Source: Carpediemonas membranifera BICM (taxonomy: Eukaryota > Protista > Fornicata). Taken from it: a stretch of DNA of 64,000 bases. The stretch is taken from NCBI GenBank assembly GCA_019828565.1, contig JAHDYR010000028.1:134300-198299 (forward strand), in the 5' to 3' direction. Each line of letters opens with the position of its first letter. Within the stretch, counting starts at the first letter, position 1. The translations under genes were made by a program, and so were the position numbers. Positions 8,087 through 58,154 of the stretch are shown here, one piece after another. The notes below the pieces were generated by a model. The model worked only from the letters and a program-made list of their open reading frames with translations, was not told where the DNA came from and ran no database searches.

Positions 8087-8165
8087 TGTTGCGCAGTATA
8101 AACACATTGTTCGAACCTCCAGACAGGGCCTGAAAGGAACGATCAAAGTGCCAAACTGCACAACA
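8087..8165 (-). ncRNA. Candidate Fanzor omegaRNA scaffold, copy 2
   Basis: 79 nt after the stop; TGTTGTGCAGT pairs with ACTGCGCAACA to close a long hairpin; followed by variable flank (putative guide). Confidence 0.65.
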
Positions 8166-10018
8166 TCATCCGTCCGTAGACGAATGTTGGCGGTTAGCCA
8201 ATTGATGATACTGGAATGATGTTGGAAGGCGCGGGATCAATGTGCGACTGAACGGAGAGCCACTGAGCTCATCTTCCGTGGCAAGAGAACGCCACAGGAT
8301 GTTTTCTGCAGCACTCTTGTCCCGATGATCAACATTCAGAGCATCAGGAACTGTTGCGCGCCACTGAGCACCACGGCACTGTGGTTTTTCGCAGAGCATC
8401 ACACGATGTGGGTGAACGTGCTGGTCATCACGCGGACGAACTCGCTTGTAGGGGGCGTGGCAGTGAGGGCAGACGACGGTGGTGCGGTCCTCGTTAACCA
8501 TGTTAAGATCGACGACAATGTTATACCCCTTGAGAAGGGGAACTATCTCTCTCGCGAACTTTCGATATGGCGCGCAAGGAATGAACATACCAGCAGGCGT
8601 GGTGAATCCCGAGCTCCCGTAGAAGACTTTCAGGCGAATGTGGGTGGCGATGGGATGGTGGCGACGCCAACCGAACTCCCGAGCCAACTGTTGGCCGCAG
8701 CGGGCGAAGTGCTTCTGGCGAAGGATGTGGTTCGCAAAGCGCACTCGGCGGAAAGACTTACGCATTCCAGCCTCGAAAATGTCGTTCGCGTTGTCCAGCA
8801 CAAACCTAATAGAGTTGTTGATACTCACTAGTCTTGTGCTCTTGAACGACGCGGCCGTCATATCAAAGCCGAAACTTGGCGTCTTAGTGTATCCGCACTT
8901 TGGAAGGACGCCGGAGCTGGTGGTGCCATCGGGGTGCCTGATGTAATATCCTCCGATGGACCTCGCGCCCGGGTCGAACCCCATGAGGTGGGAATCAGGA
9001 TCCGGCGCGGGCGGAGCATCGGCATTATTGGTCCCGAGTCGGGGGCGCTCTTTCTCCCGCCATTTCGCTCGCTTTCGAACAGGCATGCTCGCATCATGTT
9101 GTGGCCGATAGCGGCCGCCTCGCTTAACCGTCACCGCCACACAGACCCCATCGGTGCTCAGGCTGAGCAGACGGCGGGTGGCGTGTGGGAGTGTGGGATT
9201 AATTCCCACACGATGGCAGAAATTATCATTCAGTAGGCCCATCGTTTCACCGTAGGCCATGAAGCCCGGTCGGACGGGGGCCATGGGCACGATCGGCACG
9301 AGGCGAGGCTGGCGGAGCGACATCGAGTACTCCCCGTTGAAGTGGCTGATGAGGCCACTCAACGTCTCCACTCCGTCAGCAATTGCCCAGACGCAAGAGA
9401 GAATGCGTGGGGCAGCCTGAGAGACTGGGAGCCCGTCGTTCTCACCCATGTGAGTCGCCCAGAACAGCGAGGGGAGACACGCGAGGATCTCAGGGTTGAC
9501 CATGTTGAGGATGGCGTGAACGCCGGCCAACTCCTGCTGGAAGAAGGCCGGAGAACCAACACCTGCGAGGGCCTCTTCGAGTCGGGCGAGGGTGCTCTGT
9601 AGCCTGTCACGGTACGTCGTCACCGTGCGGGCGAGCCACAGCTTCACAGAGTTGGCGTATCGGGTGAACCACTTCCGGAGACTGGGACTCACTCCATGCG
9701 ACTCCGCACGACCTTCGAGCTGCGCGACCAGATCCCGCGTGGTAGTCTCCCGCCACATCGGCAGAGTGTCGAGCGCCTGCACGATGGCCGCGTAGGCCTG
9801 ACCCGGATGACCGCCGCGTACATGAGTGAGCAGTCCGTTGTGGAAGTCGGCGTCATGTAGGGGGAGTTGCCGGCGCTGCGCATAGCATTCAACCGCGAGC
9901 CGGGCCAGCAGGCATGAGTAGAGATATTTTGCTGCGGCGTAATCCCCACTCTCCGTTCTTCGGTGTAGTTCTGTCTGAAAGCTTGGTTGATGGAGGCTTT
10001 GATCGTATATATCTCCAT
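8166..10018 (-). CDS. Fanzor1-like RNA-guided RuvC endonuclease
   Basis: Open frame through all three RuvC motifs (D, E, D intact) and the Zn finger; YGSSGF...APYRKF segment typical of Fanzor1. Likely ATG at 10018 (MEIYTIKASINQ) needs one frame change near 9912. Confidence 0.85.
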
Positions 10019-10963
10019 CTTGTTGCGCACTACAGGTGTGCAGCTGGTCATTGATGAAGATGACATATAAGAGCCGACGATGAACACCATTACCAGCATA
10101 TACAAGTGTAGAAGTGAATTTAATGTGGAATAGAAGACAATGAGACGACGTGTGAGCGATTGTGATGTTTGCAGCTGTGCTGACGTCCACGAAGAAGACG
10201 CTTTGTGAAAGCCCTGGAGAATACGATCTCCCTACCGACTTAAGACGTGAGTAGGAGTGAGACAGGGCAGTGTTGCGCAGTATAAACCCATTGTTGGACC
10301 CTTCAATAGCACAGACCCGAAGACCTTAAAATGCGGCTACAAAATAGGGGCAAAATCACAGTTTGGAGTCGTCAAATGTCGTCAGATCAAGTCAGGTCAG
10401 AATCTTCTCGAAGTCGTGTTGTTTAATTAGGTCCGGCCCGGTTCCTATCGCCGCCAGCCTGAAGTGGACGGTAATCCCCCAGCAACGATTGCGGAAGGCG
10501 TGTTGCCTCTCACCGAGGCGCAGCCCCCGCCTAGAGACCGGACGCCGTAGGCACGGCGCCCGCTGCCGCCCTGCGGTGAACCAGTAGCGGCCTAAACCAG
10601 GTCTTGGCTTCGATTTCGGCGGTGCAGTGGCTCGACGTCGTCCGCCACGAAGTGTCAGAGTGTTGTCCCTAGTCCGACGCCTCTCGTGCCCTGCTCCCAG
10701 TCATCACCAGCAGGCCCTCCCGCTGCCGTCGTCCCGTCCGTCTCGGCGCTTCGTGCGATCGACATGAAAGATCACGGTGCCCCGACCTGGCTTGGCTCAG
10801 CAAGGAAACCCGGACCCAGCCAGCCCCATTTTGCTACGTCCACAAGGACTTGTCCCACTGCAACTCCGAGTGCTGCACGCAGCATCTCGAGCTGCTGGCT
10901 TCTTACCGTCTGACATGGGGATGATGTGCCGGCACCTAGTATTCTACTGCAGACCACGCGCGT

Positions 10964-38232: not shown

Positions 38233-39097
38233 TGTAGCGGTGAAGCTTGGTTTAATCTGACAAAAGGCTCATCTGACCAGTGTTGACCACCACACTACCC
38301 CCCTGTAGCGCAGCTACCACACTCTAAACTCATCGAAGATATCTTTCACGCCCATTCGCTCTTGGTACGTGTCGAGAGCCTCCAACTCATCTATTTCGCT
38401 GTCGAACGGTTGCCACGTGTCCTCAGCTGCCTCGTAGCCTCTCCAGTGAAGGCGGACCTTCAAGACCGGGTGGCGTCTGACTATCTCGACGCGGTGATCA
38501 ACGATCGAGTCGACCTCGTAGTATTCGCCTTCGCAGGCGGCCATGGCCTCGACCTCGTGTCTGGGCGCCTGGGTTAAGAACTTCCTCAAACGCTCGGCGT
38601 GGACGACCATCTCCTTCTTCATATTGAGGTCGCGGATTGTGAGCGTGTTGGGGTGCTCGGCTGGGTCGACCAGCAGCATCGGGCCGCGCAGTTTCTGTTG
38701 TAGCTTGTCGACACGACCGATGCGCTCGAGCAGCACGTAGCTATCGGGTTCGAGCTGAGCGGTTACCTCTTCCCCCTCTCCGAGCGCTGCTTCCTGCATA
38801 GCCCTGCTGACCTCCACCGACCGTCTGAAAGCTGTCAAGCCCTGTGGGGTCATCAGTGACTGAGGAGGGTCTGCCGAGGGGAATAGAACATCGAATGGCG
38901 TTAGGCCCGAACGGGCGTACGCGCTGGTGTTGATGATGTGCTGCACGTCGCGGACCGTCTCCGTCCACTTCGTGTTGGGGCCCAAATCAGCCATCAGTGA
39001 CCGAATGTGACGCATGACTTCCGCGTTCGCCCGCTCCACTATACCATTGCCCGCTGGGTGGTAGGGCGTGGAGAAACGGTGGCCAATGCCGAGCTTC
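38233..39097 (-). mobile_element. Chromovirus Ty3/Gypsy 3' fragment (integrase end, chromodomain, PPT, ~62-bp LTR 38233-38294)
   Basis: STPYHPAGNGIVERAN; YYEVDSIVDHR..LHWRGYEAAEDTW; PPT AGGGGGTAG followed by TGTGGTGGT...ACCGCTACA. Confidence 0.8.
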
Positions 39098-39304
39098 TGT
39101 GCCGGGGCGAAGAGATTGGAACATTTACATAAACTGCGGACGTGGATGCCTTATGACATCCTACCCCCCTTAAGCTTGAGCTTGTGGGACTTGAGGTAGT
39201 CACGTGCCGCAGTGACGTGGCGGAGCCCGTCAGCGGGTTCCCATGTGGGATCGTAGTCGCCCTCCCAGCGGACGAGAAGCTGCAGTGTGCCGTTGCGGTG
39301 CTTC
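39098..39304 (-). mobile_element. Second chromovirus 3' fragment (chromodomain end, PPT, ~61-bp LTR 39098-39158)
   Basis: LLVRWEGDYDPTWEP; PPT AAGGGGGTAGGA followed by TGTCAT...GGCACA, which abuts the integrase of the previous element. Confidence 0.65.
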
Positions 39305-40044
39305 TGTAATCAATTGATGACTGATTTACCCCGGATCAATTAAATCACTCTCTGTGTTTCCTGCTGCAACAATATATATTGCCATGGTAGTACCGGAAAC
39401 AGTACTGAACTGCGCACCCTACCTTAATAAGGTCTCTGAGGCGGAGTGGCGCCATATGGTTAAGTCCTGGCGTGCTTATGCCGCTAGGTGCCGTGATCCG
39501 ATTGCTATTTTCGACCTGGTGTCAAACGAAGTGCTCGAAACGTTTAAGTGCCGTTCTCCCATGCTGGGCTCTTTTCTCCAGGTGGTGGATGAACCGATGG
39601 ATGAGCATGACCCCGATCGTGAGACGGAGTGGAACGAGGAGTTTATAACAAGATGTTCCAACCTCTCGACGAGCTAGAGGCCATCGAATGGCTGAAGAAG
39701 CTGAATTGCCCCGAGTCGGGCAATCTCGTCGAGAACATGGCCGATTACGTGCTGACATTCAAGGAGACGTGTTCCTACTTCGGCGAGCTGCAGCCTCAAG
39801 CCAAGCAACTCGTGGAGGCGTTCGTCGCGGGAGTCCGCTATCAAGTCCTGAGAGCGAATCGGCGCCAAGAAGAAGAGCAAGGATCTGGAGGAGACCATGA
39901 AGGTGGCTTTTGAGCAAGCCCTGGAGGCTGAGAAGGGTAGACGTGAGGCGCAGCGTCAGTCAGTTGAGTCGAAGGGCGAGAAGACCAAGAAGAAGCATGA
40001 AAACAAGGCGTCTACCAAGTGCCCCTACTGCAACAAGGTGGGCC
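39305..40044 (+). mobile_element. Gypsy element A, 5' part (putative 67-bp LTR 39305-39371 plus frameshifted gag)
   Basis: TGT...ACA segment followed by gag-like ORFs ending KCPYCNKVG, whose knuckle continues at 63704. Confidence 0.7.
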
Positions 40045-40133: not shown

Positions 40134-41267
40134 ATGTTCGGTAATATTTCTCTGCCGACTCTGAGCGTTGAGACATTGACTAGCGAAACCTGGCGCTCAT
40201 TTAAGAGGGATGCCGCCCGAATCAAGGCGTTGTATCCCGCCGCCAAGCTGGCTGTCCTCCTCCCCAATGACCTGCAGGACATCATCGAGGACACTCTCAA
40301 CGTAGACCTGGCGAAGGCAAATGACGACAAGATTGACGAATACGTCAGCAAGTTCCTTGCTCCGGTGGACAAATTGTCCCTTGTCAAAGAGCTCGAGGCC
40401 GTCACCTGCCAGGTATCTGAAAAAGAATCACCTCCATTCGCGCGTACGTCAGCGCGTTCTCAGCAGTTTTCTCTAAGGCCGAAGACATCGAAGAGTCCGA
40501 CTCGGACGAGGACGAAGAGGAACAAGAAGAGGACGAAGAAGACATTTCCCCCTTTGAGAAGAACGCGCGTAAGATCTTCCTTCAGGGGATCCGCCCATCC
40601 ACTTTCCGCAAGGTCCTGGACTTTGAACTCAAGGAGCATCCTAAGAGGAAGTCACTTGCCGATGCATACGAGCTGAGCATTGTCCTCGCTCAAGAAGATG
40701 ACGACGCTCGGGCTAAGGCCATTCGCTTTGGTCACTACCAGGCCGGAAAGTCCTCCACCCGAAAGAAAGGAACGGCCGCAGGAGGCCAACCGCCTCGCCT
40801 CCCGGTCCCGGGCGCAGTTGCCTCAGGGGCCCCGGAGAAGTCTTCCACTCTCAAGCCGAACGACGTCAACCCAGCTTTGAAGCCTCCCCATCGTGCCTGT
40901 GGCAAGTGCGGCGGATGGCATTGGGATAATCAGTGCCCCAATGGGGCCCCAATGCGCTCTCGCCAAGAAGGAGGCGGCCTCCGGTCCAACCCGAAGAAGA
41001 AGGAGCCAATCGAGGCTAATCTCCTGGACACGGACCCCGATGAGCCACTCAAAGTGTCTGGTCGTATAAACGACCAAGAGTATTCCTTTATTATTGACAC
41101 TGGAGCACCAAAATCTATCATCTCCGCTGCGTCAGCAGAGGCCCTTGGCCTACAGACAGTGACCGGCCCGACCCTCCGCTTCAGAATGGCGAACGGTTCC
41201 ATTTCGACAACTAACCACTATACTGAGGCTTGGTTACACCTCACGCTGGCGGGAGCCCCAACGCGGT
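40134..41267 (+). pseudogene. Element B gag and protease N-part (frameshifted)
   Basis: Knuckle CGKCGGWHWDNQC; aspartic protease IIDTGA. Confidence 0.85.
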
Positions 41268-41294: not shown

Positions 41295-41463
41295 CATACT
41301 GTCCAGGGTTCAGGAATTTCCCTTATTGGGTAGGGGAATTTCCTCGGGCTTTCCCCCGAGGAAATTCCCTGATTGGATAAGGGAAATTCCTGGTGGCTCA
41401 CTCAATATTAAACTGTTTTAATTAATTATGTCATGTGCGTATACTTCATCGACTCAAGTAACC
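41295..41463 (+). repeat. Left TIR with internal palindrome
   Basis: Reverse complement of 57986-58154. Confidence 0.95.
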
Positions 41464-41892
41464 TTCCCCATTTCAGACATTTTTTTCACAACAAGGCTGA
41501 GTAGAATCTTCTAAGTGGTATACATGCACTCCCCTACCAGTAAGAAGCATGCATACCAACTTTCAAATTCTAAATCCTGCTAGAAAAAAGTAACATAGGG
41601 ACAAATATTCCTTGGGAGTTCAGACTCAAAAATCGGGCAGGGGGGAGGAAATGGTCCATAAGTACGCCTTATGGGTCGCTTCCTCCTCTCTGCCCTTTTT
41701 TTATTGACTTCTGATTTGCCAGATTTGACACATGTTCGAGGTGAGTCTTAGATTACTCAAAATGGCCTCCTGATTCAGCAGATAGACTCAAAATTTCACA
41801 ATTCGTACTCAAAACCAATTTCAACAGACGTCTGTTGCAAAATCTGCCAAAAACGCACTTTAAAGTCATTTTTGCAACAGACGTCTGTGGAA

Positions 41893-43145
41893 ATGGTCTT
41901 TAAGCTCTCCGCTGCCGATTTGACGCAACTACACAAGACTAACTACAGTAATACGTACATTGCCGACATTAGCGGGGTCAAAACTGTCGTCAAGGTCGAT
42001 AACTGTATGACACTTCGCCTGACACACGAAAAGACGATACTTCAGGCAATGAAAAGCCCATTTATTGTTACAATCGTCGATGTGGGCTTTGTTGACAGCG
42101 ATCAAGCGTTTGCCACTCGCTTTGTTGACCATATGTCGTGGCGAGACGTTCTGGCACTACCAGTACCGGATCAATGTCGCTACTTGCGGCACTTACTGTT
42201 AGCTCTCAGCCATGTGCATGAGAATGGATTCATCCACGGCGACATCAAGCCCGACAACTACCTTTTCAACCGAGAAGACGGTGGATTACTCATTGACTTC
42301 GGCTCTGCCATCAAAATAGAGGCTCCTACTGGGATTAACAGGTATATGGGACAAGACATGAGAGGGACACCTGGTTTTATCCCCCCGAGCTTCGTGCCGA
42401 CGAACTCAGTCGGAAATCGAAGCATTGTACAGTAGCTATGCGGGAACCACAGAATTTGAACCCCTTCCAGGCTTCCAGGAACACCACAACCAGAAACACC
42501 AACATGCACACAGTTGATGCGGCATACGACATCTTTTCCTGCGGCGTTATCGTCCTCATGATGGCATTGCGACTGGATAAGTCTCCATTTCGATCTGTGA
42601 GAGTGGATGGTGGCAAGCCAAGTAACCCAGACGAGCATATTGGCGCTCTATATAACATGGCGTACTTCTACGGCCGCGAAATCACGATACACAGCAAGAA
42701 GAAGAATGCAGCCCGTGGTTTGATGATCAATCCGACTCTCTGCACGAGAGGAAGCCCTCCGACACAGTATAGGAGCCTTTATGACCTTGCAATGGGGATG
42801 CTCAGCTATAATCCGGAGGATAGACCAACAGCTTTGATGTGCGCTGAACATCTCAACGATATCGCCGCCCTAGCAGCAACGTTCGCATCAACACCACTGA
42901 TGATCAACGACCAGGTGACAATCTCTCAGGAAACGCTCGCTGCCGCCAAACTCACCGTTGAAGCACTTCGAGAAACCCGATTTGCTGGCCGATGCATTGC
43001 ATGTGGCATGCCGGTTCACGATAATCGAACAATAACTTGCAAGACACACCACCAAGATTACAGAAGCATCATGAACCCCCACACAAAGAGAAGAGGACGA
43101 GTTTGGAGGGTTCATCGTGATCTATCATTGATTATTGATATGTAA
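41893..43145 (+). CDS. Cdc7-like Ser/Thr kinase (one frameshift in the C-run at 42381-42386)
   Basis: VVK, HE, HGDIKPDN, DFG, GTPGFIPP(E), DIFSCG, DRPTA; one extra C joins the two ORFs. Confidence 0.75.
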
Positions 43146-43593: not shown

Positions 43594-45273
43594 TTAATCA
43601 CTCTCATCATCTTTTTGTCTACTTGTGGATGACGGAGCGCCTTCCTGTATTTGCGCTTTTCTTTTGATACCCTCTGGGAGACTGACAAGTTCCGCATGGT
43701 CGTCCTGGAGCAGAATAAAGTGGGTAATGCCATGTCTGGAACAGAACACCTGGAAATTCTCACAACGATCAGCAGCTGAGTCGCCAGAAGGGTACAAACC
43801 CCAAAACTGGTGACCATGTGTGAACAATATCACTGTAGAATTATTACCGTTGTTGCACACCATGATGACATTACGCATGTAGATCATGGAAAACTCTCGC
43901 ACAGCATCATCGGTAAGCCAGCCCATCTTGGAAAACAGTTCTGCCTTAGCGGAATCCTCCGTCAGAGCCGTCCGCTTCACCCGGCTTTCCACCAGCTCGG
44001 CACGCAAAGCCATGGCTGCCTCAAGATCTGTTCTGTGGGTCAGGGTGGTCATATCCCGGAAATGGCCGTCCCTAATCATGCAACAGCAGTGCGCAACACA
44101 GCTGCCATCACGGTGTGTCGAGTATTTCCTCCATGACTTCAACCCATTCACAATTTCCTCAACGAAGGACTGTGGCTGACCGCTGGTGCCGATTGGAATC
44201 TCTTTCTTCTCAATCATATTGTTGATGTGAGACTCAATGGCCACAGATGACTCGTGTTCAGACTTGATCAAGAGCAGAGAGCGAAAGTCGACGATCTTAG
44301 CAGTGGAATCGAAGTTCGGGTACGCAGGCCGGTAAACCTTGTTAAGCAAAGGATAACAACGCGGCGGGAGTCTTGCGTCTTCCTCCGATACGATCTTCGC
44401 TTTTGCACAACCGTCAGGTCTTGCGATAATGACTCTTCGCTTCATGTACGAGAGCTTGGACATCCAGAACCAGAATTGCGCGATCTCATGGAGGTGATCT
44501 GGCTGAGTCATGATTCTGATGAGCCACGTGGCGTCATGGGCGGCAAGTTCGACGGCGGGTAGCTCATCTGGTGTCAAAAGCACCACACACCGTTGCATTG
44601 TGAACTTGAACTTGCCAGAATACAACTGAAAGATCGGCCGTGGGTCACGGGCGGAAGACTGGCAGGCGGCAATATACACACCCATGATTCGGGCGAACTT
44701 GCAGACATGACTCTCATAATTCTTCAGAATTGCCTCGATGAAGTCGAAGGCAGTTGTCCAGATGGCTGGTATCGTGCGGGCATCGACCACAAACCGACCA
44801 TCAGAGTCCGAGTGACCAGTGATAATGAAAAAAGTCTCATAGTCACCATACAGCTTGCCGAATTCCTTGATTTTCGCCTCAAAATCGTCCTCGTTCTCGA
44901 ACTGGGCCGTCTCGATAACCGTATACTCGCTATGCATTGCCGCAAAGATCTGACGAATGCGTTCTGCGTGCCCTCCAATGGAGACAGATTCATCAATCGA
45001 AAACTGCCTGCTATCTCCAGCAACGAACCCATAGGTTGGCTCGAACACGATGAGGACACGTGTATTCTTCAGCGCCAGTGCAGTACGGGTGCACTTGTGA
45101 CGTCGGGATGGCGAGGGAAAACCGACGTTGCGTGTTTCGCTACTGATGTCCCCACAGACACATTCAAACAGCTTTGATCCATCCAGATATCGATTTCTCC
45201 ACCCCATTGCATTGAAAAATGTCTGATCGTCGTTCATGACGCCAATGCCAAATTGAGGGTGAGAAAATGGCAT
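43594..45273 (-). CDS. Caspase-like (clan CD) plus OTU-like peptidase protein
   Basis: FIITGHS and VYIAACQS His/Cys motifs; RDGSCVAH...GWLTD...FILLQDDHAELV OTU-like pattern. Confidence 0.55.
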   Translation of the reverse strand: MPFSHPQFGIGVMNDDQTFFNAMGWRNRYLDGSKLFECVCGDISSETRNVGFPSPSRRHKCTRTALALKNTRVLIVFEPTYGFVAGDSRQFSIDESVSIGGHAERIRQIFAAMHSEYTVIETAQFENEDDFEAKIKEFGKLYGDYETFFIITGHSDSDGRFVVDARTIPAIWTTAFDFIEAILKNYESHVCKFARIMGVYIAACQSSARDPRPIFQLYSGKFKFTMQRCVVLLTPDELPAVELAAHDATWLIRIMTQPDHLHEIAQFWFWMSKLSYMKRRVIIARPDGCAKAKIVSEEDARLPPRCYPLLNKVYRPAYPNFDSTAKIVDFRSLLLIKSEHESSVAIESHINNMIEKKEIPIGTSGQPQSFVEEIVNGLKSWRKYSTHRDGSCVAHCCCMIRDGHFRDMTTLTHRTDLEAAMALRAELVESRVKRTALTEDSAKAELFSKMGWLTDDAVREFSMIYMRNVIMVCNNGNNSTVILFTHGHQFWGLYPSGDSAADRCENFQVFCSRHGITHFILLQDDHAELVSLPEGIKRKAQIQEGAPSSTSRQKDDESD

Positions 45274-45334
45274 CGCACTTTAAAGCAGCTTTATGTGAGA
45301 AATGTATTGCATATAATTCTGCATTCAGAAGACG

Positions 45335-46193
45335 ATGGCTAGAACAAAGCAAACGGCTCGCCGGCCTACGCAAGGTGGAAAGGCGCCTCGCAAGCAGTTA
45401 GCAGCGATAGCTGCGCGGAGAGCGAATACTTCGTCGTACCGCACCTACAAGCCGTTGTCTCAGGCCGCGTTGGAGAATTGCACGGCAGTCCTGCAAAAGG
45501 CTGATGCTGATATCCAAGAAACTATTCTGTCGTGCATCAAGAAGACGGAGGCGCACAACTTCAAGCAGATGGTCAAGAATTCAACACGAGCTGGTTTCCG
45601 ACTTGCATTCAACACTGAGTCCGAGTCTGTCCACATGAACCCATCGAGGAAGGACGAGGTGGCAGCGCGGGCAGAAGCTGCTTACCAATCAGCGCTGCAT
45701 GCCTTCCGCAGCGTTGACCCTGAGACTGCTGCGACAGAAGATATGAAGACACTGCTTGACACCTTAGCGGTTGCTCTTGACGCAACGCCAGATGTGCCAC
45801 ATGCTCGCCTGGATCCTGAAGAACAGCGTCGGTTCCTGAAGCTGAAGGATACGAAGAAATTCTCCAAGTACTGCCTTCCTCGCAGTGACGAGAAGTTTTT
45901 TCTCGACCAATCTTCGCGCTGCCTTGCGCGAACACCTGGCGAAGGTGTTTCCAAACCTCCCTTGGAACAAGATTGTCTCCTGCTTCTCCCCTGAAGCGAT
46001 CAATGCTGATTTCTTTATCCTGTCCACGAGCAATGCCACCTACGACGAAGCTTGCCTGACAATGCCGTCTGATGAGAGAAAGAAGCTTCGCAACCATCTT
46101 TCCATGACTGAAGAACGGCAGATTGCTCGTCAAGAGATGGAGGTTGAGATTTACCAGTTTTTAAGAGAGCTCGGTATGTTCTCTACAGTGTAA
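45335..46193 (+). CDS. Protein with N-terminal histone H3-tail mimic (probable frameshift near 45900)
   Basis: [29 protein letters not shown] followed by sequence unrelated to the H3 fold. Confidence 0.75.
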
Positions 46194-46282: not shown

Positions 46283-47041
46283 TTAAAACAGTTTAAGGAA
46301 CTCGTCCAACGTCTTCGCATTGTGCGTCATGGCCACCTTGTCCTTCTTCGTCAACCTCGATTTGGTACCCTTTCTCTTCACAGTCGTCTTCTTCTTCTTA
46401 GAAGGCTCCCAGCTCCCATTGGCGCATGCTTTTCTTAGCTTCTTCTGCTCTAATCTGTACTTCTCCTCCTCCGTCATGTCTGCTTCCTTTTTCTTTGCCT
46501 TCGCCTTCTTCTTCGACTTCATTACATCTAACTTCTTCGCCTTCTCTGCATCCTCCTGGACCACGCGAGAAATTGAGTGCTTCACGTCCTTCGGTACATC
46601 ACGATTCCTCGCATGCTTAACCACGACAAAGACATTATCGTCAGTGCCGCCACCTTCAAGGATGACCTTGTCCTTTGGGATCTTGCTGGTGGCAACCAAG
46701 AAGCAGATCGGCTTCTTATCCACCTTGAATAGGGCAAACCTGCAGTTGCCAGCAGCCGAATGATGGCAAAGCTTGTTGACGCATGCTTCATCAGGAGTCA
46801 TGAGGTGCAGCTGTGACGATAGCTGAATCCGAGAAGGCTGATCGCTAAGAACACCCTTGGCAATCCCGAGCACTTCTCCCTCATCAACATCGCCAGCCGT
46901 GACCAAACCATACATCATGTCATCGCCCTTTGACACCATGCATGTGCTGCACTTCAGAGAAATGAGCGATTGGCCGTCAAGCTCGACAATTTGGTCATCA
47001 TCGAAAGGCAAGGCGTCTATCTTCATCGCGGCTTCGCCCAT
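46283..47041 (-). CDS. Divergent SET-domain protein with Lys-rich tail
   Basis: YGLVTAGDVDEGEVLG..KG, KLCHHSAAGNC (cf. RFINHSCxPN), FLVATSKIPKD. Confidence 0.6.
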   Translation of the reverse strand: MGEAAMKIDALPFDDDQIVELDGQSLISLKCSTCMVSKGDDMMYGLVTAGDVDEGEVLGIAKGVLSDQPSRIQLSSQLHLMTPDEACVNKLCHHSAAGNCRFALFKVDKKPICFLVATSKIPKDKVILEGGGTDDNVFVVVKHARNRDVPKDVKHSISRVVQEDAEKAKKLDVMKSKKKAKAKKKEADMTEEEKYRLEQKKLRKACANGSWEPSKKKKTTVKRKGTKSRLTKKDKVAMTHNAKTLDEFLKLF

Positions 47042-47259: not shown

Positions 47260-48090
47260 CATATCCTGCACAGACTTCGTTGATGAAGAAGTTCTGCTAT
47301 GACGAAGCCGGCTTGTCGCGACGAGAACTGGGCCATAGAACTGAAATCGGCATCCGAATATCGCGGCACGCATGGGTATTTACCCCCAGAAATGTTCAAA
47401 GTGTGTTCGTGTTCGGTCATTCCGCCGTCAACGAGCGCCATACGAGACCTCCAAGCATACGCGCATGACTGCATCGGCTCTTCCCGCCTGTTCTTCATGT
47501 CGTCACACCTGCCTCCGACATTTACTCGTGCGGTGTAGTCATTGCTCTTTTACGGTCTCCCCAAGTCCCCCTTTGCCGCGAAGGTGACTGACATGGCGCA
47601 GATCGACAACAAGAAGAAGAATAAGATGCTGAAGCTTGGTAGCTTGCTGAACTGGTGCCACTTCTATGGTGGGCAGTTGCAGTTGTCACGTAAGACACTC
47701 GAACCGCTCAGAGATTGTCTCAACTTCGTGAACGTGAACTCTGCACTACCGATTCGCGGCACAACGCCACCCACTTGCCTCGGAATGTACGACCTGGCAA
47801 TGCAGATGCTCCCACTTCGACCCAACGAAGCGTCCCACTGCTGCCGAATGTCTTGACAAGCTCAAGGTCATCATGCGCGTGCATGAATGCGTCGCCAAGC
47901 CGAGTCCGCTTCTGTTAGATGACACTGAACAGGTCTTACTCTCTGTAGATCAGCGAAAGAGAATGGTCGACTGCTGCCAACTGGGGTCCTGGAGGAAAAG
48001 TTTAGAGATGCGATTCGAAAGGGTCGTAGCATTGAACTCGAAACCATGAGTCCTAAGAACACCGGCGCATGCCCAACACTCACCCCGGTG
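47260..48090 (+). pseudogene. Degenerate second kinase, paralogue of 41893-43145
   Basis: RGTHGYLPPE, DIYSCGVV and YDLAMQML spread across frames. Confidence 0.6.
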
Positions 48091-49419
48091 AAGTACTGGC
48101 CGTGGTTTGAACATATACCGACACATAACTGGGTAAATACGTAAAATGTTGTGCGAAAATTGCGTCTTGTTCTGCACAGAGCGATGACGAAACTAAAAAC
48201 GGAACAAGAAGAGGCCTGAAGATTTAACTGCCCGGCGGTGCAGGTTCGTCAAGTGGCCGGAGATGCCGCTTCCAGTAAGGTGTATGCCGTACAGCTCGCC
48301 GTATCCATCTCCGTGCCCGTCTCCATCCCCACTCCGCCTTCAACGCCAGCCCCCGCCACGCCTGTTGTAAGTCCGCCTCCATCTCCTGTCCGCAGTTCAC
48401 CACCGAGTCTCGAAATCGAATCACCTCACTACCATGATTCCCCGCAATACCATGATGTATGTGATGACCATTAAACGATCTCCTTCTATACAATGACTTC
48501 TGAAGCCGTCCGACCAACGGCACAGAACGGTTTATAGCATGCATATGATCCATTCTGGTGCCTTTATCCTCTATAACCAACATCAGTCCATCAAAATGAA
48601 TCTTGCAACAGAATACTCATCCACACGCATCGAGAACGAAAAAGAAGCATATAACCAACATCAACAACCTAATAGAAGGCTGCATGCAAGCGTAGAGCTC
48701 TCCTAGTCGATTCTTCAATTTATCAAGCATCAATCTCCACGTCAGGATGAGAAACTGTGCGCCCAAAAGCTCAGAGATGCCGTTATAGATGATATAACGA
48801 CGTCTCTGAGCTTTTCAGCGATGTCAGTTTTCTGGCCACGTCAAGTTCGGCTCTGCGAAAATAACAGTGCATTGCACTATAAGTCATACATTTGGAATAC
48901 AGCAATGCACTGTTATTTTCGCCAAAACCACGCTGACCTACCATTGTCCATGGGCTTGACGGGGGTGATCTTCTCGGCTTGGATTTGGCTGAAACTTGGT
49001 ATATGTGTAGTATTTGATATGTTAGGACGGATCCAAGATTTTTTACATATCGTTCGAGTCTATTTACCGAGATATACGTAAAGCAAAATTAGGGTTGAGT
49101 CTATTCTGGCTGAAAAGCGGTATGGTGGGTTCTCTGACTGTCTGAACACGGCTCCAGAAGTTTTACGTGATGAATTGGCATATTTATATTGCTTTGCGTA
49201 AACAGAAAATTTTGACAGTACCTACAATCAACTACCTGCATATACATGCTATAAACATGCTTAAAAATGCCTTCAGTCATTACGTGCTATATACTAAAAG
49301 CTCTTCCTGCATCTTATTTCGAAAGAACAAAATATTCACTCTGAAAATAACACTGCATTTGCTGTGAAATTTTGGAAAAAGATGCTAGATATCACTATTC
49401 TACGCAGCTGGATTCGTGA

Positions 49420-51522: not shown

Positions 51523-52752
51523 ATGAAGCAAGTGCCGAAAAAGAAGTCTCCTGGAACCTATCGCGCGTTCACTGGTCATGATCTTACTACAAATCTTTCA
51601 AAGATCACTTTTCGGGCCATGTTGACATGCTTCTTTGTCATTGTCGATGATATCGACGTAGACAGTGGCCTCTCACTGGGAATGCCCAAAGACTCCGTGT
51701 TATCGGCCTATAACACTGTCGTGTCGAACTTGCTTGTCCCTGTGTACGGTGGTTTTGTTGCTTTGAAGAAGAAGAACTTCAACGAGAAGGGGTTGCTAGA
51801 CTGGGCGAGAGATTTGGGTTATAAGCTCGGTTACACCAAGACTAAGCCGATCATCTACCACCAGTTGACGCCGAAAGAGAAGCCTAGCGCCAAGGATCTG
51901 TCAGTTTTCATGAAGGAGATGGCGAATGTCCTCAGACTAGCCAACGCCCCTGATATGGACATCGAGAACCTGAAGAAGATGAAGTTCATCTTCCCGACAG
52001 GTCTACTTCTTGATGCCAGGCAAAGATATCACAAGCAAAGCGTGCAGACCAAAAGGCTGAGGGGAGATGAACCCAGCTTTCCTGCGTCTCCAATCAAATC
52101 TGAGTCACTGCTCAACGATAACAGCCTTCTTGGATCCATTAAGACTGAAAGAGATGCGAAGACTCCCGCTCGTGACTCTTCTCTGACAAATCCTTCGGTC
52201 CAACACCAAATGATCCAGGATCTTCACCAATACGTTGTTGGTGAACGAAAGTTCGATATGGCACATCAGCAAGAGCTGAAGCGTCCTACTGCTGATGACA
52301 GTGATGACAGTGATGTCAGCATTGCTGAGAAGACAGGTCCGCTGATTTCTTTCGATATGTTTATGCGTCAACTAGCATTTTGCTGCGGGCATTGCACTTC
52401 CCCGGATTGGTTGGGCAATCCGGAGAACGAAACTGACTTCGCCCAGTGCGGATCATGCAACCGCTACTACCATGGGAGGTGCGTGAGGTGGCTCAGCAAT
52501 GGGAAGAAGGCCATTACCAATTTCACGTGTCCGGATTGTGCTGCTGCTTCTGAATGCACCCGCTGCAAGGCTAAGATCAAATCGTCAAAGGGAAGGGACT
52601 CTTTCTTCTGCAACATGTGCAAATCTTGGTATTGCAAGCCATGCGGTGTGGCCATGTGGGAGACCTCGATTGATGGAACCGTTGCCAGGTTCTTATTTTG
52701 CCAGGTCTGCAAGGAAAGCCTCCTGGCACTGAATCCGAGTCTGGCATTGTGA
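51523..52752 (+). CDS. PHD-finger protein with second Cys-rich finger
   Basis: CGHC..AQCGSCNRYYHGRCV..FTCPDC (C4HC3), then CTRC..CNMC..CKPC..CQVC. Confidence 0.8.
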   Translation: MKQVPKKKSPGTYRAFTGHDLTTNLSKITFRAMLTCFFVIVDDIDVDSGLSLGMPKDSVLSAYNTVVSNLLVPVYGGFVALKKKNFNEKGLLDWARDLGYKLGYTKTKPIIYHQLTPKEKPSAKDLSVFMKEMANVLRLANAPDMDIENLKKMKFIFPTGLLLDARQRYHKQSVQTKRLRGDEPSFPASPIKSESLLNDNSLLGSIKTERDAKTPARDSSLTNPSVQHQMIQDLHQYVVGERKFDMAHQQELKRPTADDSDDSDVSIAEKTGPLISFDMFMRQLAFCCGHCTSPDWLGNPENETDFAQCGSCNRYYHGRCVRWLSNGKKAITNFTCPDCAAASECTRCKAKIKSSKGRDSFFCNMCKSWYCKPCGVAMWETSIDGTVARFLFCQVCKESLLALNPSLAL

Positions 52753-52964: not shown

Positions 52965-54359
52965 TCAAACAACAATTTCTGCTGGTATTGGTTTCTCATA
53001 CAACGGCATCCATGGAAGAGTTGGTGTCCACCGCAGAATATTGTTGTACGCGTACCACCGTTTGTTGAGTGGGTTGAACAGCCAGTAAGTGCTGGGGGAC
53101 TTATCCATCAGTGTCACTGCATATTTTGATGCCTCAAAGCGCGCAATAGCAGGAAACCCATGCGATTGTCTCGAAACCACAGTTTGTCTGCTCCCGCCGT
53201 CTACTCGCACATAGATAAGGACGTTGTTGGGCAATAGCACAAACTTGGAAAGTGGGTACAACCTATACACCTCATGTTCGCTGCAAGGAATCGGGTTTGG
53301 GTCCAAAAATAGAGATCGGACAATGTTGGGGATGAGTCGGGATCTACCGATGAGATAGCAATCATTGCCAGATCTAACGATCATAAACCTAGACTGTGCA
53401 ACAAAGATGATTGCGTCGATCCAGACAGGTGTCCTCCTGAACCCCGGATGGGCGACATCCGTCATGTCATCAGCGGGAATATGACCAGTGGTATTACCGG
53501 TGAAGAACTGGGCTGGGACTATATTCTTTGTCTTGGATGCCCGGACCGTTCCGGACAAGATAACAAGTCCAGGCACGGCCCTGATCCCTCCAAGATTGAC
53601 GGGAAGTTTCACCTTAGCAAACGAAGAGAATCGGTGAGTGAGGGCCACATCGTGTCCAAACCAAGCCATCATATTAACGCCATACTCCTGAGAAGGCGCT
53701 GTAACGAGCACCCCGTGCATTGTGTGCAACATGATGTAAGTGTTGCAGTGGCAGTCAAGAACAAATCGATGCCTGCACCACAGATGCATCTTGGCAAGCT
53801 TCTCAGCTATGGCTGCGGGGAAAACCGCCTGATGGACAGATGTAACACGAGCGAACCACAAGTTGCCAATGTAGAACGCCTTGCTGGTTGAGAAGAAGAA
53901 ACACTTGCCATCAGACCAGAACCGCATGATCCGGTGACGGAATGAACGATGATTGTCGTGGAAGACAAACCCACAATAATGCACGAGCTCTGATGCATCA
54001 TAGCTCTTGATGACAGTCCGATCTCTCTTAGCAACACTATGTGAAAACATGAACTTCCTGCACATGAACCAGAGAGCGCTCGAGTCACCATCGGTCACCG
54101 TCCTCAGTATGGCCCACAACGTCCCTTGTATAAGCGTGTGAAGACGGTCGGGCAGCGATTCGCCTTCGCGAAGCTGAACATCCATGCTTAGCTGTGGATG
54201 GCTTCGCAGTTTGATGACGCGAGAGAGAATCCGGGCAACCTGCGATGCCTGATCCGAATTCTCAAGCTCTTGCGCGTGAAGACAAGCAAGCTGAAGCATG
54301 TCATCAAACGTCTCCAGGTCTTGAAAGATGTGATAGAAATGCGAACGCGCAGGGAACAT
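52965..54359 (-). CDS. Hypothetical protein, beta-rich C-terminus (possibly divergent RCC1-like)
   Basis: Intact 464-aa ORF; fold assignment tentative. Confidence 0.5.
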   Translation of the reverse strand: MFPARSHFYHIFQDLETFDDMLQLACLHAQELENSDQASQVARILSRVIKLRSHPQLSMDVQLREGESLPDRLHTLIQGTLWAILRTVTDGDSSALWFMCRKFMFSHSVAKRDRTVIKSYDASELVHYCGFVFHDNHRSFRHRIMRFWSDGKCFFFSTSKAFYIGNLWFARVTSVHQAVFPAAIAEKLAKMHLWCRHRFVLDCHCNTYIMLHTMHGVLVTAPSQEYGVNMMAWFGHDVALTHRFSSFAKVKLPVNLGGIRAVPGLVILSGTVRASKTKNIVPAQFFTGNTTGHIPADDMTDVAHPGFRRTPVWIDAIIFVAQSRFMIVRSGNDCYLIGRSRLIPNIVRSLFLDPNPIPCSEHEVYRLYPLSKFVLLPNNVLIYVRVDGGSRQTVVSRQSHGFPAIARFEASKYAVTLMDKSPSTYWLFNPLNKRWYAYNNILRWTPTLPWMPLYEKPIPAEIVV

Positions 54360-54614
54360 AAAAGAAGACCCTTGTGGCTTGTTCTAAATAGCCCGGCAGG
54401 TTGTTGGGCAAAGTTTTGCACAGGACACAAGAGTTCCAGTAAAGGTCACAAACACTGAGCGACAATTGTCTGTGATTAGAATCAGTCATGTTCCCCCTAT
54501 AGCTGTTCTTAAACTGCACTGCCAAAATGAGGTGGAGAAAATGGCATCGACATTTTTTTACGTAGGACCAATATAAACAGCGAAAAAACGTAAAGGAAAC
54601 AAAACTGGGAGGAC

Positions 54615-57185
54615 ATGCATATCTCCACACAAGCTACTTTGGTCATCTGGAGAATGACACCTTACGGTAACATTCTAGCACCATCAAGCGTTTCCGCCGT
54701 CAATGTCATTCTAGCAAACGTTTACACCTCGATCCAAGGACACCACGCTAATGGCATGGATCGACGGTTCCGTCAATGCGATAAGGATTCGCGTTCGTTG
54801 TTCAAGGCTGTCTTGCTATCTCTAACTGATGGTGATATTGACAAGAGCATTCTTGATCCTGTCTTTGTTTCCTTGCTTGATGGTAATACGGATCGTTTTC
54901 GACGTAACATATGTGCTACTGTCAGAGAGTACACACCAACATGGTCCCATGCCTTCTCACCTGCGTCGGACGAGAGAGATAGCTTGTGCGAGGACAACCA
55001 CCTGCTACTCGAGAAGATTGAGAACACCGAGCATGCATTTCAGTTCGCAATGGCGCTCAAGCGGATCACTGAAGGTGTCAATGTCGTTGATGATGAGGTT
55101 ACTGTCTTTAACGCGATCGCCAAAAGGCTGGGTATCCAGACCATGAAGTTTGATGTCTCACATTATGCTCTCAAAGACCTTGGGTGTGATATTAGGAACG
55201 TGTTCGGAGTGAAAGAAGCCATGAAAGATCACGAGGCAGATTTTTTCGAGAGTCTTGTACCAGACGAGATACACTGTTCGCACAACACGTTTCGTTATGA
55301 TCAAAACAACCAGAAGTTCCCTCTCGAACATACGACACGTTTCCCAATTGCAGCTGACGCAATAGGCTCCTTGCCGGTTCCGGTCAACAACTACTTACAT
55401 GATGGAACGCACATTACTATCTTCTTCAACAGCGAAGATGAACGAGATCAATGTGTCTCCATGCTTTCCCACCCTCAACCCCACCAAGTTGAAAAGCGAT
55501 CGGTGGGCCTTTGTCAAGTCGGTTAAGTATAACATTTCCAGCCGTATTGCACGAGGCATTCAGTCACCACAGTATCTCGAGACAGCCAGAGATATTTGGT
55601 ATGATACAACGACACATGTTAGCAGAGAAGCGCGTGTTGAAGCTAGCTACATTCCAGTTGACATTCTCATCTGGTTTGATGCATGGCGAGGGACTACGAC
55701 CGCTGTCAAATTCAGGCTGATTGACATGACAGGAGAGGTCTTTCCGCAGAGAGTGACATCACCATTCAGACTGCTTGAGTACCAGGGAAAGGAGGATCTT
55801 TTGCCAACATACTTTGAGTATATTCAGTCTAACGTGGAAGAGGCAATCCAGAAGTCATTCCAAGTGCGAGAAACTGGAAGGTGGGCAAGAATCAACAGAG
55901 TATTGCTGATTGGTGACCACCCTGCCATGTCGACAGTTGTGGGCTCGCTGCAAGGAGGGCATTATCCATCGCCTTTCCAATCGAATAGTAAGCGAAACAT
56001 GGGTTGGATGCCGTTTGGCGCCACGTTCCGGACCACACTTCAGCACGTCCTCCAAGCCAAAGAAGGTAGTATTGCTGAATCTACATCGGGTATTCCAGAT
56101 CCTGCCGCGCACTGGGGCAGCTTTCTCCCTGGCGACTGACCGAAGGCGTTCGTTGGAATACAGAAGAAGAAGGTTACGTCAAACTCTCTTTGAGGGATCG
56201 TCGATTGCTCCTGACAGTGTGTTTCTTATCCCCCAATCATGCACTGTTGCCATCATTTCATGGGTCAGGTGGCCCTAATGGCGGGAATGTTCAAACCGCG
56301 GAATGACGGCTCACGAGAAGAGAACGCTCAGTGGGGACGTTATCTGCAATCTATCCAAGATTTCAAACCGCCAGATCGTACAACTGGGTGTAATGAGCAT
56401 ATGTTAGGCCGCAGGTTGATGGCCAACATGGCAACGACGTACTATCATGCGTTTCCTGTCTCTGTTCAGTCCATCTTCAGACTAATGGGATATCTTTTTC
56501 TCCCATTATTACTCAACTGCGACAGTGACGGAAGATATCGTGTGGTGGCATCGAGTTGCTGCACTGTTGGTCCACTTACTCCATGTAAGCCTCTCCTTGG
56601 TCACTGATAAGCCCATCCCGGTTCCCACACCATCCGAGGCAAAAATCAATGCGGCCATTCACTCAGACGCTATATAGCAATGCAATTGTCGCAACCATTC
56701 CCGAGATACAAGCCGCAACAATGCTTCCTTTTGGTGTCATCATTGAGGAGTACTTCGAGAGAGACTTCATTGGCAACCAGGATGCTCGTGTACATTTGAG
56801 GAGGAACACAGTTCTGCAGCAAGTTATTCTGAGAGAACAAGCGGAGATGTTCTATCGGTTCCTGCGCGGTCCTGTATCTTATGGTCGACGTGAGGGCCAC
56901 GTACCACTTCTTTCCCCTCTGATCAGCCTCCGAGTACACAAATGTTGCAAAGATCACGCTCAATGGATTCGTATTCAACAGGATATGACAGAAACGTTGC
57001 CAAAGTCTGATGTCAACGATCTGAATAGAAAATTCGAGCAGAACGTCGCTCATTTGTGGGAAAGCATGCTGAGACGAGCGCGAAAGTCATGGAACAATGA
57101 AGACTGGCTGTTTATCAAGGTTCGGGATGATCGTGAGAACGGTGTTCGTCTTGACGTGTGTCTATGCAGAGAAGGCTGTCCATAA
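54615..57185 (+). pseudogene. DDE transposase (Chapaev/Transib/CMC-like) split by several frameshifts
   Basis: ILIWFDA (D1), YQGKED, LLIGDHPAM..VG..G.YP (D2), IPPIMH (after +1 C), GVIIEEYFE (E). Confidence 0.65.
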
Positions 57186-57985
57186 ATCGTAGTTGTATTT
57201 TAGCGGGGAGACAATAATCAACCACACGCCCGACCAAGCAGGAAAGTGACGCCCCTGGGATTGACGGGGGAAACCCCGCATATTCCGGCAGCAAAACTTC
57301 GCTGAAACGGAACCACATAATTACTTGACTGATTTTTGGATCTTAGAGAAGACTTGACGCGCATAAACTCAGGTTGATCGTCAAGATCTCCGAAAGGAAC
57401 GCAACTGCTGCCTAAATCACCTTTTATCATTATTAGTCGGTTCAGCTTTTTTTCTCGCAAGTCCGTCATCATTTCGTGACATAATCCGCGGGATCCGTAG
57501 CGAACGATGACTCCTCGGAAAAAAACACATAGTTGTGCTCTACACTTGACCTACATTCCAAATATTCACTTTGTTCTTTCCAACGGCTCAGTTTTTGTCA
57601 TGCGTTGACCGACCAAGAATGTGAGCGTACACTGACACTATTGGTTGCATGATGTGAAACATCGTGTATTGCGTACATGAACAAAGTTTTAAGCTGTTAT
57701 GACTCGTATTCGTTGAGATATGGCTGTTTGTTCATACGCCTAAAAATGCACACATGGTCAAATCTGTCGAAACAAAAAAGAATTGGGAATATCTCGGGAA
57801 TGACACGTTGCCGTTTTTCAAAAATCGGGCAAGCCCAACGAATGATAGTATGGGATCGCCTGCATCATTTGCAAAAAACGGCAACGTGTCAATCTCTAGA
57901 TATCGCCAATTCTGCATAAAAACTTTTTTTTGCAAGGCATAGAACTCTACACTGTGAGCACTAGTGTATTAGTGCTTGCAGAAGC

Positions 57986-58154
57986 GGTTACTTGAGTCGA
58001 TGAAGTATACGCACATGACATAATTAATTAAAACAGTTTAATATTGAGTGAGCCACCAGGAATTTCCCTTATCCAATCAGGGAATTTCCTCGGGGGAAAG
58101 CCCGAGGAAATTCCCCTACCCAATAAGGGAAATTCCTGCACCCTGGACAGTATG
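57986..58154 (-). repeat. Right TIR
   Basis: Reverse complement of 41295-41463. Confidence 0.95.

Follow-up and report, generated by a model that had tools for sequence, protein, structure and literature searches.

In a 64,000-nucleotide stretch of the Carpediemonas membranifera genome (the window), one gene of a DNA transposon encodes a protein that, judged by its sequence, begins with a genuine copy of the N-terminal tail of histone H3 and continues without a histone fold (Table 1). The 30-letter translation of positions 45335 to 45424 differs from canonical H3 by six substitutions (K9R, S10P, T22A, K23I, K27R, and S28A). Residues A1 to R8, G12 to K18, and Q19 to A21 are unchanged, starting at residue 1, and alignment to solved H3 chains places one extra residue ahead of GGK. 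Against those chains the match covers residues 1 to 40 only, and at E values up to 10 it gathers 133 sequences, the best at 2e-6.

A preliminary description of this DNA had already recognized the tail, and this identification is borne out. Its list of changes was correct as far as it went, but it missed T22A and the one-residue insertion. It also described K4, K14, and K18 as kept; the three lysines are indeed present, although "K14" and "K18" stand at tail positions 15 and 19 because one residue is inserted before GGK.

A non-histone protein headed by an H3 tail

The protein starts with M-A-R-T-K, with Arg at 2 and Lys at 4, as the H3TM rules require, and the initiator Met is probably removed, judging by the Ala that follows it. 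Both ARKS motifs are absent. Where inhibitory mimics of the K-to-M or K-to-I kind have Met or Ile at K9 or K27, the tail has Arg at both positions and Ile at 23 only. The histone-like domain of PAF15 (PF15715) gives a weak Pfam match to the tail (E = 2.4).

To look for a histone fold, we built a profile from 28 H3 folds; its best score across all six frames of the window was 5.7 bits, compared with 66 to 193 bits for the same profile on real H3 loci. Pfam likewise returned no histone match (PF00125) at E values up to 10. The preliminary description had likewise seen no histone fold after the tail. Lacking the defining fold, the tail protein is neither H3 nor CENP-A.

That description also took 45335 to 46193 as the frame of a single product, which does not hold. 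The stretch consists of two frames, the first stopping at 45994 and the +1 frame continuing to 46193. By codon scores, the first frame fits better as far as 45895 and the second from 45900 on, which locates the break at the T6 run at 45896 to 45901; codon use within the body is coding-like on both sides of this single homopolymer break. A homopolymer sequencing error is the likely cause because the published C. membranifera assembly is described as using R9.4 nanopore reads (PMC8516963). Alternatively, an intron of 25 or 28 nt could account for the frame switch. A diverged histone fold in the +1 frame just ahead of the break was also considered and was ruled out, since codon scores favor the first frame there.

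Body residues 31 to 184, searched against 1.84 billion cluster representatives, gave three matches, one of which belongs to a second copy of the element. The other two were weak (E = 3e-4 and 5e-4; a bacterial TPR protein and an "uncharacterized YoxC" record) and were discarded, so that this search yielded no relatives of the body beyond the second copy. The single-sequence structure model of the tail protein was poor (pLDDT 47), and a fold search with this low-confidence model returned nothing at an E value of 0.001 in PDB or BFVD.

TABLE 1 Features of the element, with coordinates in the window
Feature	Position	Strand	Remarks
Left terminal inverted repeat	41295..41463	+	169 nt; starts CATAC; GG just before
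Ser/Thr kinase, two overlapping frames	41893..43145	+	C6 run at 42381
Intact 559-aa ORF, family not assigned	43594..45273	-	Divergent from H3-tail gene; best Atlas score 0.79 (no more than a lead)
33-nt motif	45243..45275	+	60 nt upstream of H3-tail start
H3 N-terminal tail copy	45335..45424	+	Extreme protein N-terminus; 22/28 identical to canonical H3
Non-histone body, about 255 aa	45425..46193	+	Helical by low-confidence prediction; frame switch at T6 run
SET-like protein	46283..47041	-	Degenerate cofactor and catalytic motifs; lysine-rich helical tail
Decayed duplicate of the C-terminal part of the kinase	47469..47856	+	31% identity over 91 aa, E = 5e-7
Protein of 409 aa with a PHD finger near its end, then a second Cys-rich finger	51523..52752	+
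Intact 464-aa ORF, family not assigned	52965..54359	-
Second copy of 33-nt motif	54517..54549	+	88% identical; 66 nt upstream of transposase start
Transposase, several frames	54615..57185	+	Resembles Transposase_21 (EnSpm), RAG1, Plavaka
Right terminal inverted repeat	57986..58154	-	99% complementary to left; GG just after

The transposon and its other genes

The element, bounded by its inverted repeats, spans 16,860 bp, and its GC content is mostly 0.44 to 0.52, versus 0.52 to 0.66 for the window's first 41 kb. The ends (CATAC...GTATG) have the CA..TG form of the CMCT clade (EnSpm/Plavaka/Transib), whose end rule and target duplication (2 to 5 bp) are described in PMC12730594. The GG on both flanks is a possible 2-bp target-site duplication, a two-base agreement expected by chance in about 1 of 16 cases. 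Transposase Atlas scores were 0.92 to 0.95 (Transposase_21, RAG1, and Plavaka clusters), with a recognition value of 2030, below the 2300 mark, and Pfam gave no match for this protein. By eye, the H-x3-H motif is present (MHCCHH), and the C(2)C position reads SPF. The transposon setting given in the preliminary description stands: the element is a DNA transposon with 169-nt inverted repeats, and the Atlas scores place its DDE transposase in the CMCT clade.

The 15-nt core of the 33-nt motif occurs exactly twice in the window, ahead of the H3-tail gene and of the transposase, and the motif is possibly a promoter element that these two genes share. Paralogy of the 559-aa and 464-aa ORFs was examined as a cause of the shared motif and was ruled out.

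The chromatin-related neighbors named in the preliminary description fared differently: the PHD protein is real, but the "SET" protein is only SET-like. The closest solved relatives of the element's PHD finger are those of BPTF (the best, E = 7e-6), ALFIN-LIKE, and PHF8, all of which read H3K4me3. A Tyr occupies the position of a BPTF Trp that we take to be an aromatic-cage residue. Predicting the complex of the PHD protein with the tail, without alignments, gave a score of 0.00, which speaks neither for nor against binding. Elsewhere in the PHD protein, at 52117 to 52299, there is a weak Ndc80_HEC match (E = 0.041; 14 bits, where the cut-off is 25) that probably arose by chance.

For the SET-like protein, the Pfam match (E = 0.035) is below the cut-off and covers profile positions 2 to 97 of 105, and the match to SETD8 has an E value of 0.14. 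Its KLCHHS aligns with RLINHS of SETD8 and departs from RxxNHS, the SET cofactor motif; no Tyr follows the last strand, where the terminal catalytic Tyr is expected. The protein is therefore likely inactive as a methyltransferase. Its single-sequence model was poor (pLDDT 42). Among solved structures, the kinase matches Cdc7 best (E = 7e-10) but hardly better than S6 kinase; a Cdc7-like match is of interest in a host species with reduced replication machinery.

The element also contains long imperfect hairpins at 41808 to 41904, 48760 to 48922, and 57779 to 57913, with others in the terminal repeats. It lies among nested insertions at 39384 to 63635, where an insert of about 1.9 kb interrupts a Ty3-type LTR element that has a chromodomain; direct repeats of 18 nt (near 41250 and 60002) bound this insert, and the DNA transposon sits inside it. 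A further chromodomain integrase is found at 38314 to 39150. Elsewhere in the window, 8087 to 10525 and 1 to 2441 are inverted copies of a multi-copy element, differing in small indels only; its 530-aa protein has TnpB/Fanzor-like motifs by eye, 16 cluster members, and a weak Cas12f1-like TNB match (E = 0.14).

Origin of the tail and the changes at K9 and K27

We examined whether the codons of the tail resemble those of the element or those of the host. GC3 is 0.50 in the tail, 0.58 in four element genes, and 0.77 in nine host genes, and the 30 tail codons favor the element over the host by about 6 bits. Because element-like codons here encode a conserved peptide, albeit over 30 codons, an old capture is suggested, with the tail long resident in the element and the peptide under purifying selection. 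R9 is encoded by CGG, which differs from a Lys codon at two bases, and is thus no simple read error.

The 464-aa ORF encodes a protein identical to one recorded from a different contig (727,793 nt), and two proteins encoded outside the element come from a contig of 198,299 nt, which indicates that a second copy of the element exists. Among 205 candidates of 30 to 155 aa, the best tail match was KAG9389682.1, from a contig that is likewise 727,793 nt long. It agrees exactly with the tail protein of the window up to R26 and in 50 residues of the body; three indels separate the two, and two of these lengthen same-base runs. One indel falls at residue 27, where K is read in the shifted frame. The simpler reading is that the second copy has R27 as well, through a single lost G; alternatively, a K codon may have been shortened at the A run. 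Thus, of the two arginines whose conservation in other copies the preliminary description had raised, R9 is shared, and residue 27 is ambiguous at the indel. The H3-tail gene is frameshifted in both copies as assembled, and since the two are near-identical, they do not by themselves demonstrate selection. KAG9389682.1 is annotated as "histone H3/CENP-A," which we regard as a misannotation, based on the tail alone with no histone fold; the record concerns a species studied for its reduced kinetochore.

The tail might also copy a divergent host H3 variant that already had R9, P10, I23, and R27, a scenario we consider very unlikely. The host is reported to have five H3 genes, one CenpA, and "other divergent H3 variants" (PMC8516963). 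R9 and I23 do occur in fold-bearing H3 proteins, in 97 and 3, respectively, of 107 matches, a set chosen by likeness to the query. Yet no fold-bearing protein with residues 9 to 12 of the tail appeared among the matches listed at 30 to 155 aa (120 of 177), in the 3 matches among 5191 candidates of 156 to 499 aa, or in the 21 matches among 53 candidates of 224 to 2000 aa; for the last set, sequences were inspected for 12 and tail positions were scored for all. Across the searches from 30 to 2000 aa, the sole match to these residues, among the matches listed, was the second copy. These searches cover cluster representatives, and a host H3 inside a 90% cluster could be hidden among them. The codon use of the tail is also not host-like.

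All six substitutions fall on modifiable residues, which has a chance of 0.021 if positions are treated as equal. A control with viral H3 tails weakens this. A scan of IMG/VR, using a pattern of positions 1 to 7 only, gave 41 loci, of which 39 have an H3 fold; residue 9 is K in 33 of these, R in 5, and H in 1. In a set of 29 distinct giant-virus H3 tails, changes occur at K9 in 5, at K27 in 6, at K18 in 7, at K23 in 8, and at S28 in 21, but at K14 in none; K9, T22, K23, K27, and S28 belong to the positions that vary most. Modifiable residues account for 63 of the 90 changes in the giant-virus tails, which brings the chance of six out of six to about 0.12. Against this background, the modifiable-residue pattern is not significant. 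In a metagenome scan of 6 of 64 parts, an H3 fold was present in 78 of the 81 frames from the best 80 of 390 loci, and 77 of these have K9. The tail is clearly unlike ordinary H3, yet it is within reach of the drift seen in viral H3s.

H3 tails were also found on other proteins. Nine of the 21 matches in the search from 224 to 2000 aa lack a histone domain, namely, seven VWA proteins (six with a U-box), a fungal F-box protein (P0156), and a possibly chimeric tyrosine recombinase (P0145). The search from 30 to 155 aa added a 2EXR protein with an H3 tail (P0120). All nine fold-less matches of the longer search carry R9, as does the 2EXR protein, but the query words favored R9. The idea that tail fusions generally carry R9 was rejected, as scans neutral to position 9 gave fusions with K9: L058, of the VWA family and with K27 as well; L011, a giant-virus ORF; and L066, with another histone-like fold. 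The grafting of H3 tails therefore recurs, and it does not require loss of K9. Selected loss of K9 and K27 is not established, given the drift at these two positions among giant-virus H3s and the K9 retained by three other fusions.

Some of these loci deserve mention in their own right. The VWA (+U-box) proteins (P0149, P0150, P0153, P0154, P0157, P0159, P0160, and L058:13-900) carry H3 residues 1 to 26 with K9 or R9. This diverse family, which was not found in viral contigs, is possibly an undescribed family of H3-mimic ubiquitin ligases. The ORF at L011:4525-4962 has an H3 tail without a fold and adjoins a UvrD helicase, and L066:232-555 joins an H3 tail to a different histone fold, H2B-like by eye. 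At L042:255-4405, a compact locus has a small recombinase-like ORF (by eye; no Pfam match), then an intact SET protein (E = 3e-6), and directly thereafter a full H3 with Q10, R27, and an insertion at the same place as that of the tail in the window. This locus looks like mobile cargo and is a possible model for the ancestral cargo of the element, although no homology between the two was detected, their SET proteins included.

These observations bear on another possibility: an H3 gene, either captured or of viral origin, is decaying into a relic, and the substitutions reflect drift at labile positions. The natural variability of K9, T22, K23, K27, and S28 in giant-virus tails fits such a relic, as do the L042 precedent and the several broken genes in the element. 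We nevertheless consider it quite unlikely: 22 of 28 residues are kept despite element-like codons, the long body frame is coding-like on either side of one homopolymer break, and the breaks themselves may owe much to early nanopore chemistry, given that two of the three second-copy indels extend same-base runs.

A proposed role and its relation to known systems

Our tentative proposal, which we hold at somewhat less than even confidence, is that the tail acts as a portable mimic of H3: bearing marks at K4, K14, and K18, it would dock chromatin readers and keep the element active. An H3 gene would have been captured long ago, losing its fold while the tail was retained under purifying selection. 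Removal of the Met would free the A1-R2-T3-K4 end needed by PHD readers, for which PMC8166343 describes a need for loss of the Met, a groove for R2, and a cage for K4. The host's K4 and acetyl enzymes would then mark K4, K14, and K18, and the marked tail would recruit chromatin readers, the PHD protein of the element probably among them. With R9/P10 and R27/A28, the bait would be neither methylated at positions 9 and 27 nor held by chromodomain readers. The body would tether this bait to DNA or proteins of the element, and the H3-tail gene would be co-expressed with the transposase, both having the same 33-nt motif upstream. As a result, the element would be kept in active chromatin. The preliminary description had proposed a bait for K4/K14 machinery or for the PHD protein, and its interpretation as a whole is partly supported. 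A conflict over silencing is plausible in metamonads because H3K9me3 and H3K27me3 are reported to cover silent transposon genes in Trichomonas (PMC11875748). It is doubtful, however, that a tail open to activating marks only, a PHD reader, a dead SET protein, and a kinase work as one module that shields the element from K9/K27 silencing.

Alternatively, the tail could be a borrowed tag for nuclear import and DNA binding that brings the body into the nucleus. The retained stretch ends at about residue 28, and residues 1 to 28 of H3 are an import signal; H3 tails of similar length head unrelated proteins (VWA/U-box, F-box, 2EXR, and tyrosine recombinase); and the K-to-R changes preserve charge. 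Still, an import tag has no need of a letter-for-letter A1 to R8 at the exact N-terminus, K23I loses a charge, and the PHD and SET-like neighbors suggest tail chemistry, making this explanation unlikely.

The preliminary description had also suggested that the tail inhibits K9/K27 methyltransferases as a pseudo-substrate, a claim that now looks weak. A competitive inhibitor of silencing methyltransferases could work through K9R and K27R as pseudo-substrates or through K23I as a trap. It would be in keeping with the ARR context retained at 9 and 27, with the inhibitory effect of K-to-I at K27, and with the likely dead SET protein encoded next door. However, inhibitory mimics use K-to-M or K-to-I, and K-to-R, the change present at 9 and 27, is not inhibitory in the way K-to-M is. 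In addition, the K9 motif (ARKS) is broken by P10 and the insertion, and I23 is present in ordinary H3s as well. Finally, E(z) is reported as absent from every metamonad surveyed in 10.1101/2021.07.16.452543, which is partly contradicted by the EZH2 homologues and K9/K27 marks reported in Trichomonas (PMC11875748). Overall, inhibition is highly improbable.

Returning to the portable mimic, the tail resembles those of H3 variants, CENP-A, and giant-virus H3s but, unlike them, is not followed by a histone fold. It shares with EZHIP and the K27M oncohistones a peptide resembling an altered H3 site; there, a Met-type change traps PRC2, whereas the element's tail has K-to-R. Like the VWA/U-box, F-box, 2EXR, tyrosine recombinase, and L011 fusions, it puts an H3 stretch from residue 1 to about residue 26 at the start of a protein that is not a histone, but those fusions have unrelated bodies, keep S10, and in some cases keep K9. 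The finding suggests that H3-tail fusion proteins form a recurring class. If the module reading were right, the element would be one case of a wider and apparently undescribed grafting of H3 residues 1 to 26 onto non-histone proteins, including ubiquitin-ligase parts.

H3TMs such as VRK1, which are reported to bind PHD readers (PMC8166343), and PAF15 (PF15715) also have an H3-like N-terminus on a non-histone protein. They differ in being host genes, with only a short motif in the case of H3TMs, whereas here the tail is transposon cargo with 22 of 28 residues identical. Among viral histone mimics, influenza NS1 has a K4-like motif and SARS-CoV-2 ORF8 an ARKS motif (PMC13165374). As in those cases, a selfish element presents an H3-like motif to host chromatin proteins; unlike those short motifs, the copy described here has 29 residues, a true N-terminus, a DNA transposon as carrier, and no ARKS.

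Transposons with SET or TET cargo are described in PMC12730594 and 10.1101/2025.02.11.637652, and 10.1101/2021.11.30.470311 is among the sources on chromatin cargo of the SET, TET, PHD, or chromo kind. Cases given there include SET and adenine methylase in the Plavaka elements of Bostrychia; TET in fungal EnSpm, ESTA, and Plavaka; and SET in HarbingerS and MuDR. The element resembles these transposons in size (17 to 19 kb in Bostrychia), CA..TG ends, and accessory chromatin genes, and it has a possible short target duplication as well. It differs from the CMCT cargo described so far in those sources, which consists of enzymes or readers, by its H3-tail fusion and degenerate SET. No transposon-borne H3-tail fusion was reported in the mostly open-access literature searched; if the module reading held, the element would carry the first H3-tail mimic borne by a transposon. 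A nearly whole H3 tail serving as transposon bait would unite histone mimicry with transposon chromatin cargo in a new anti-silencing route.
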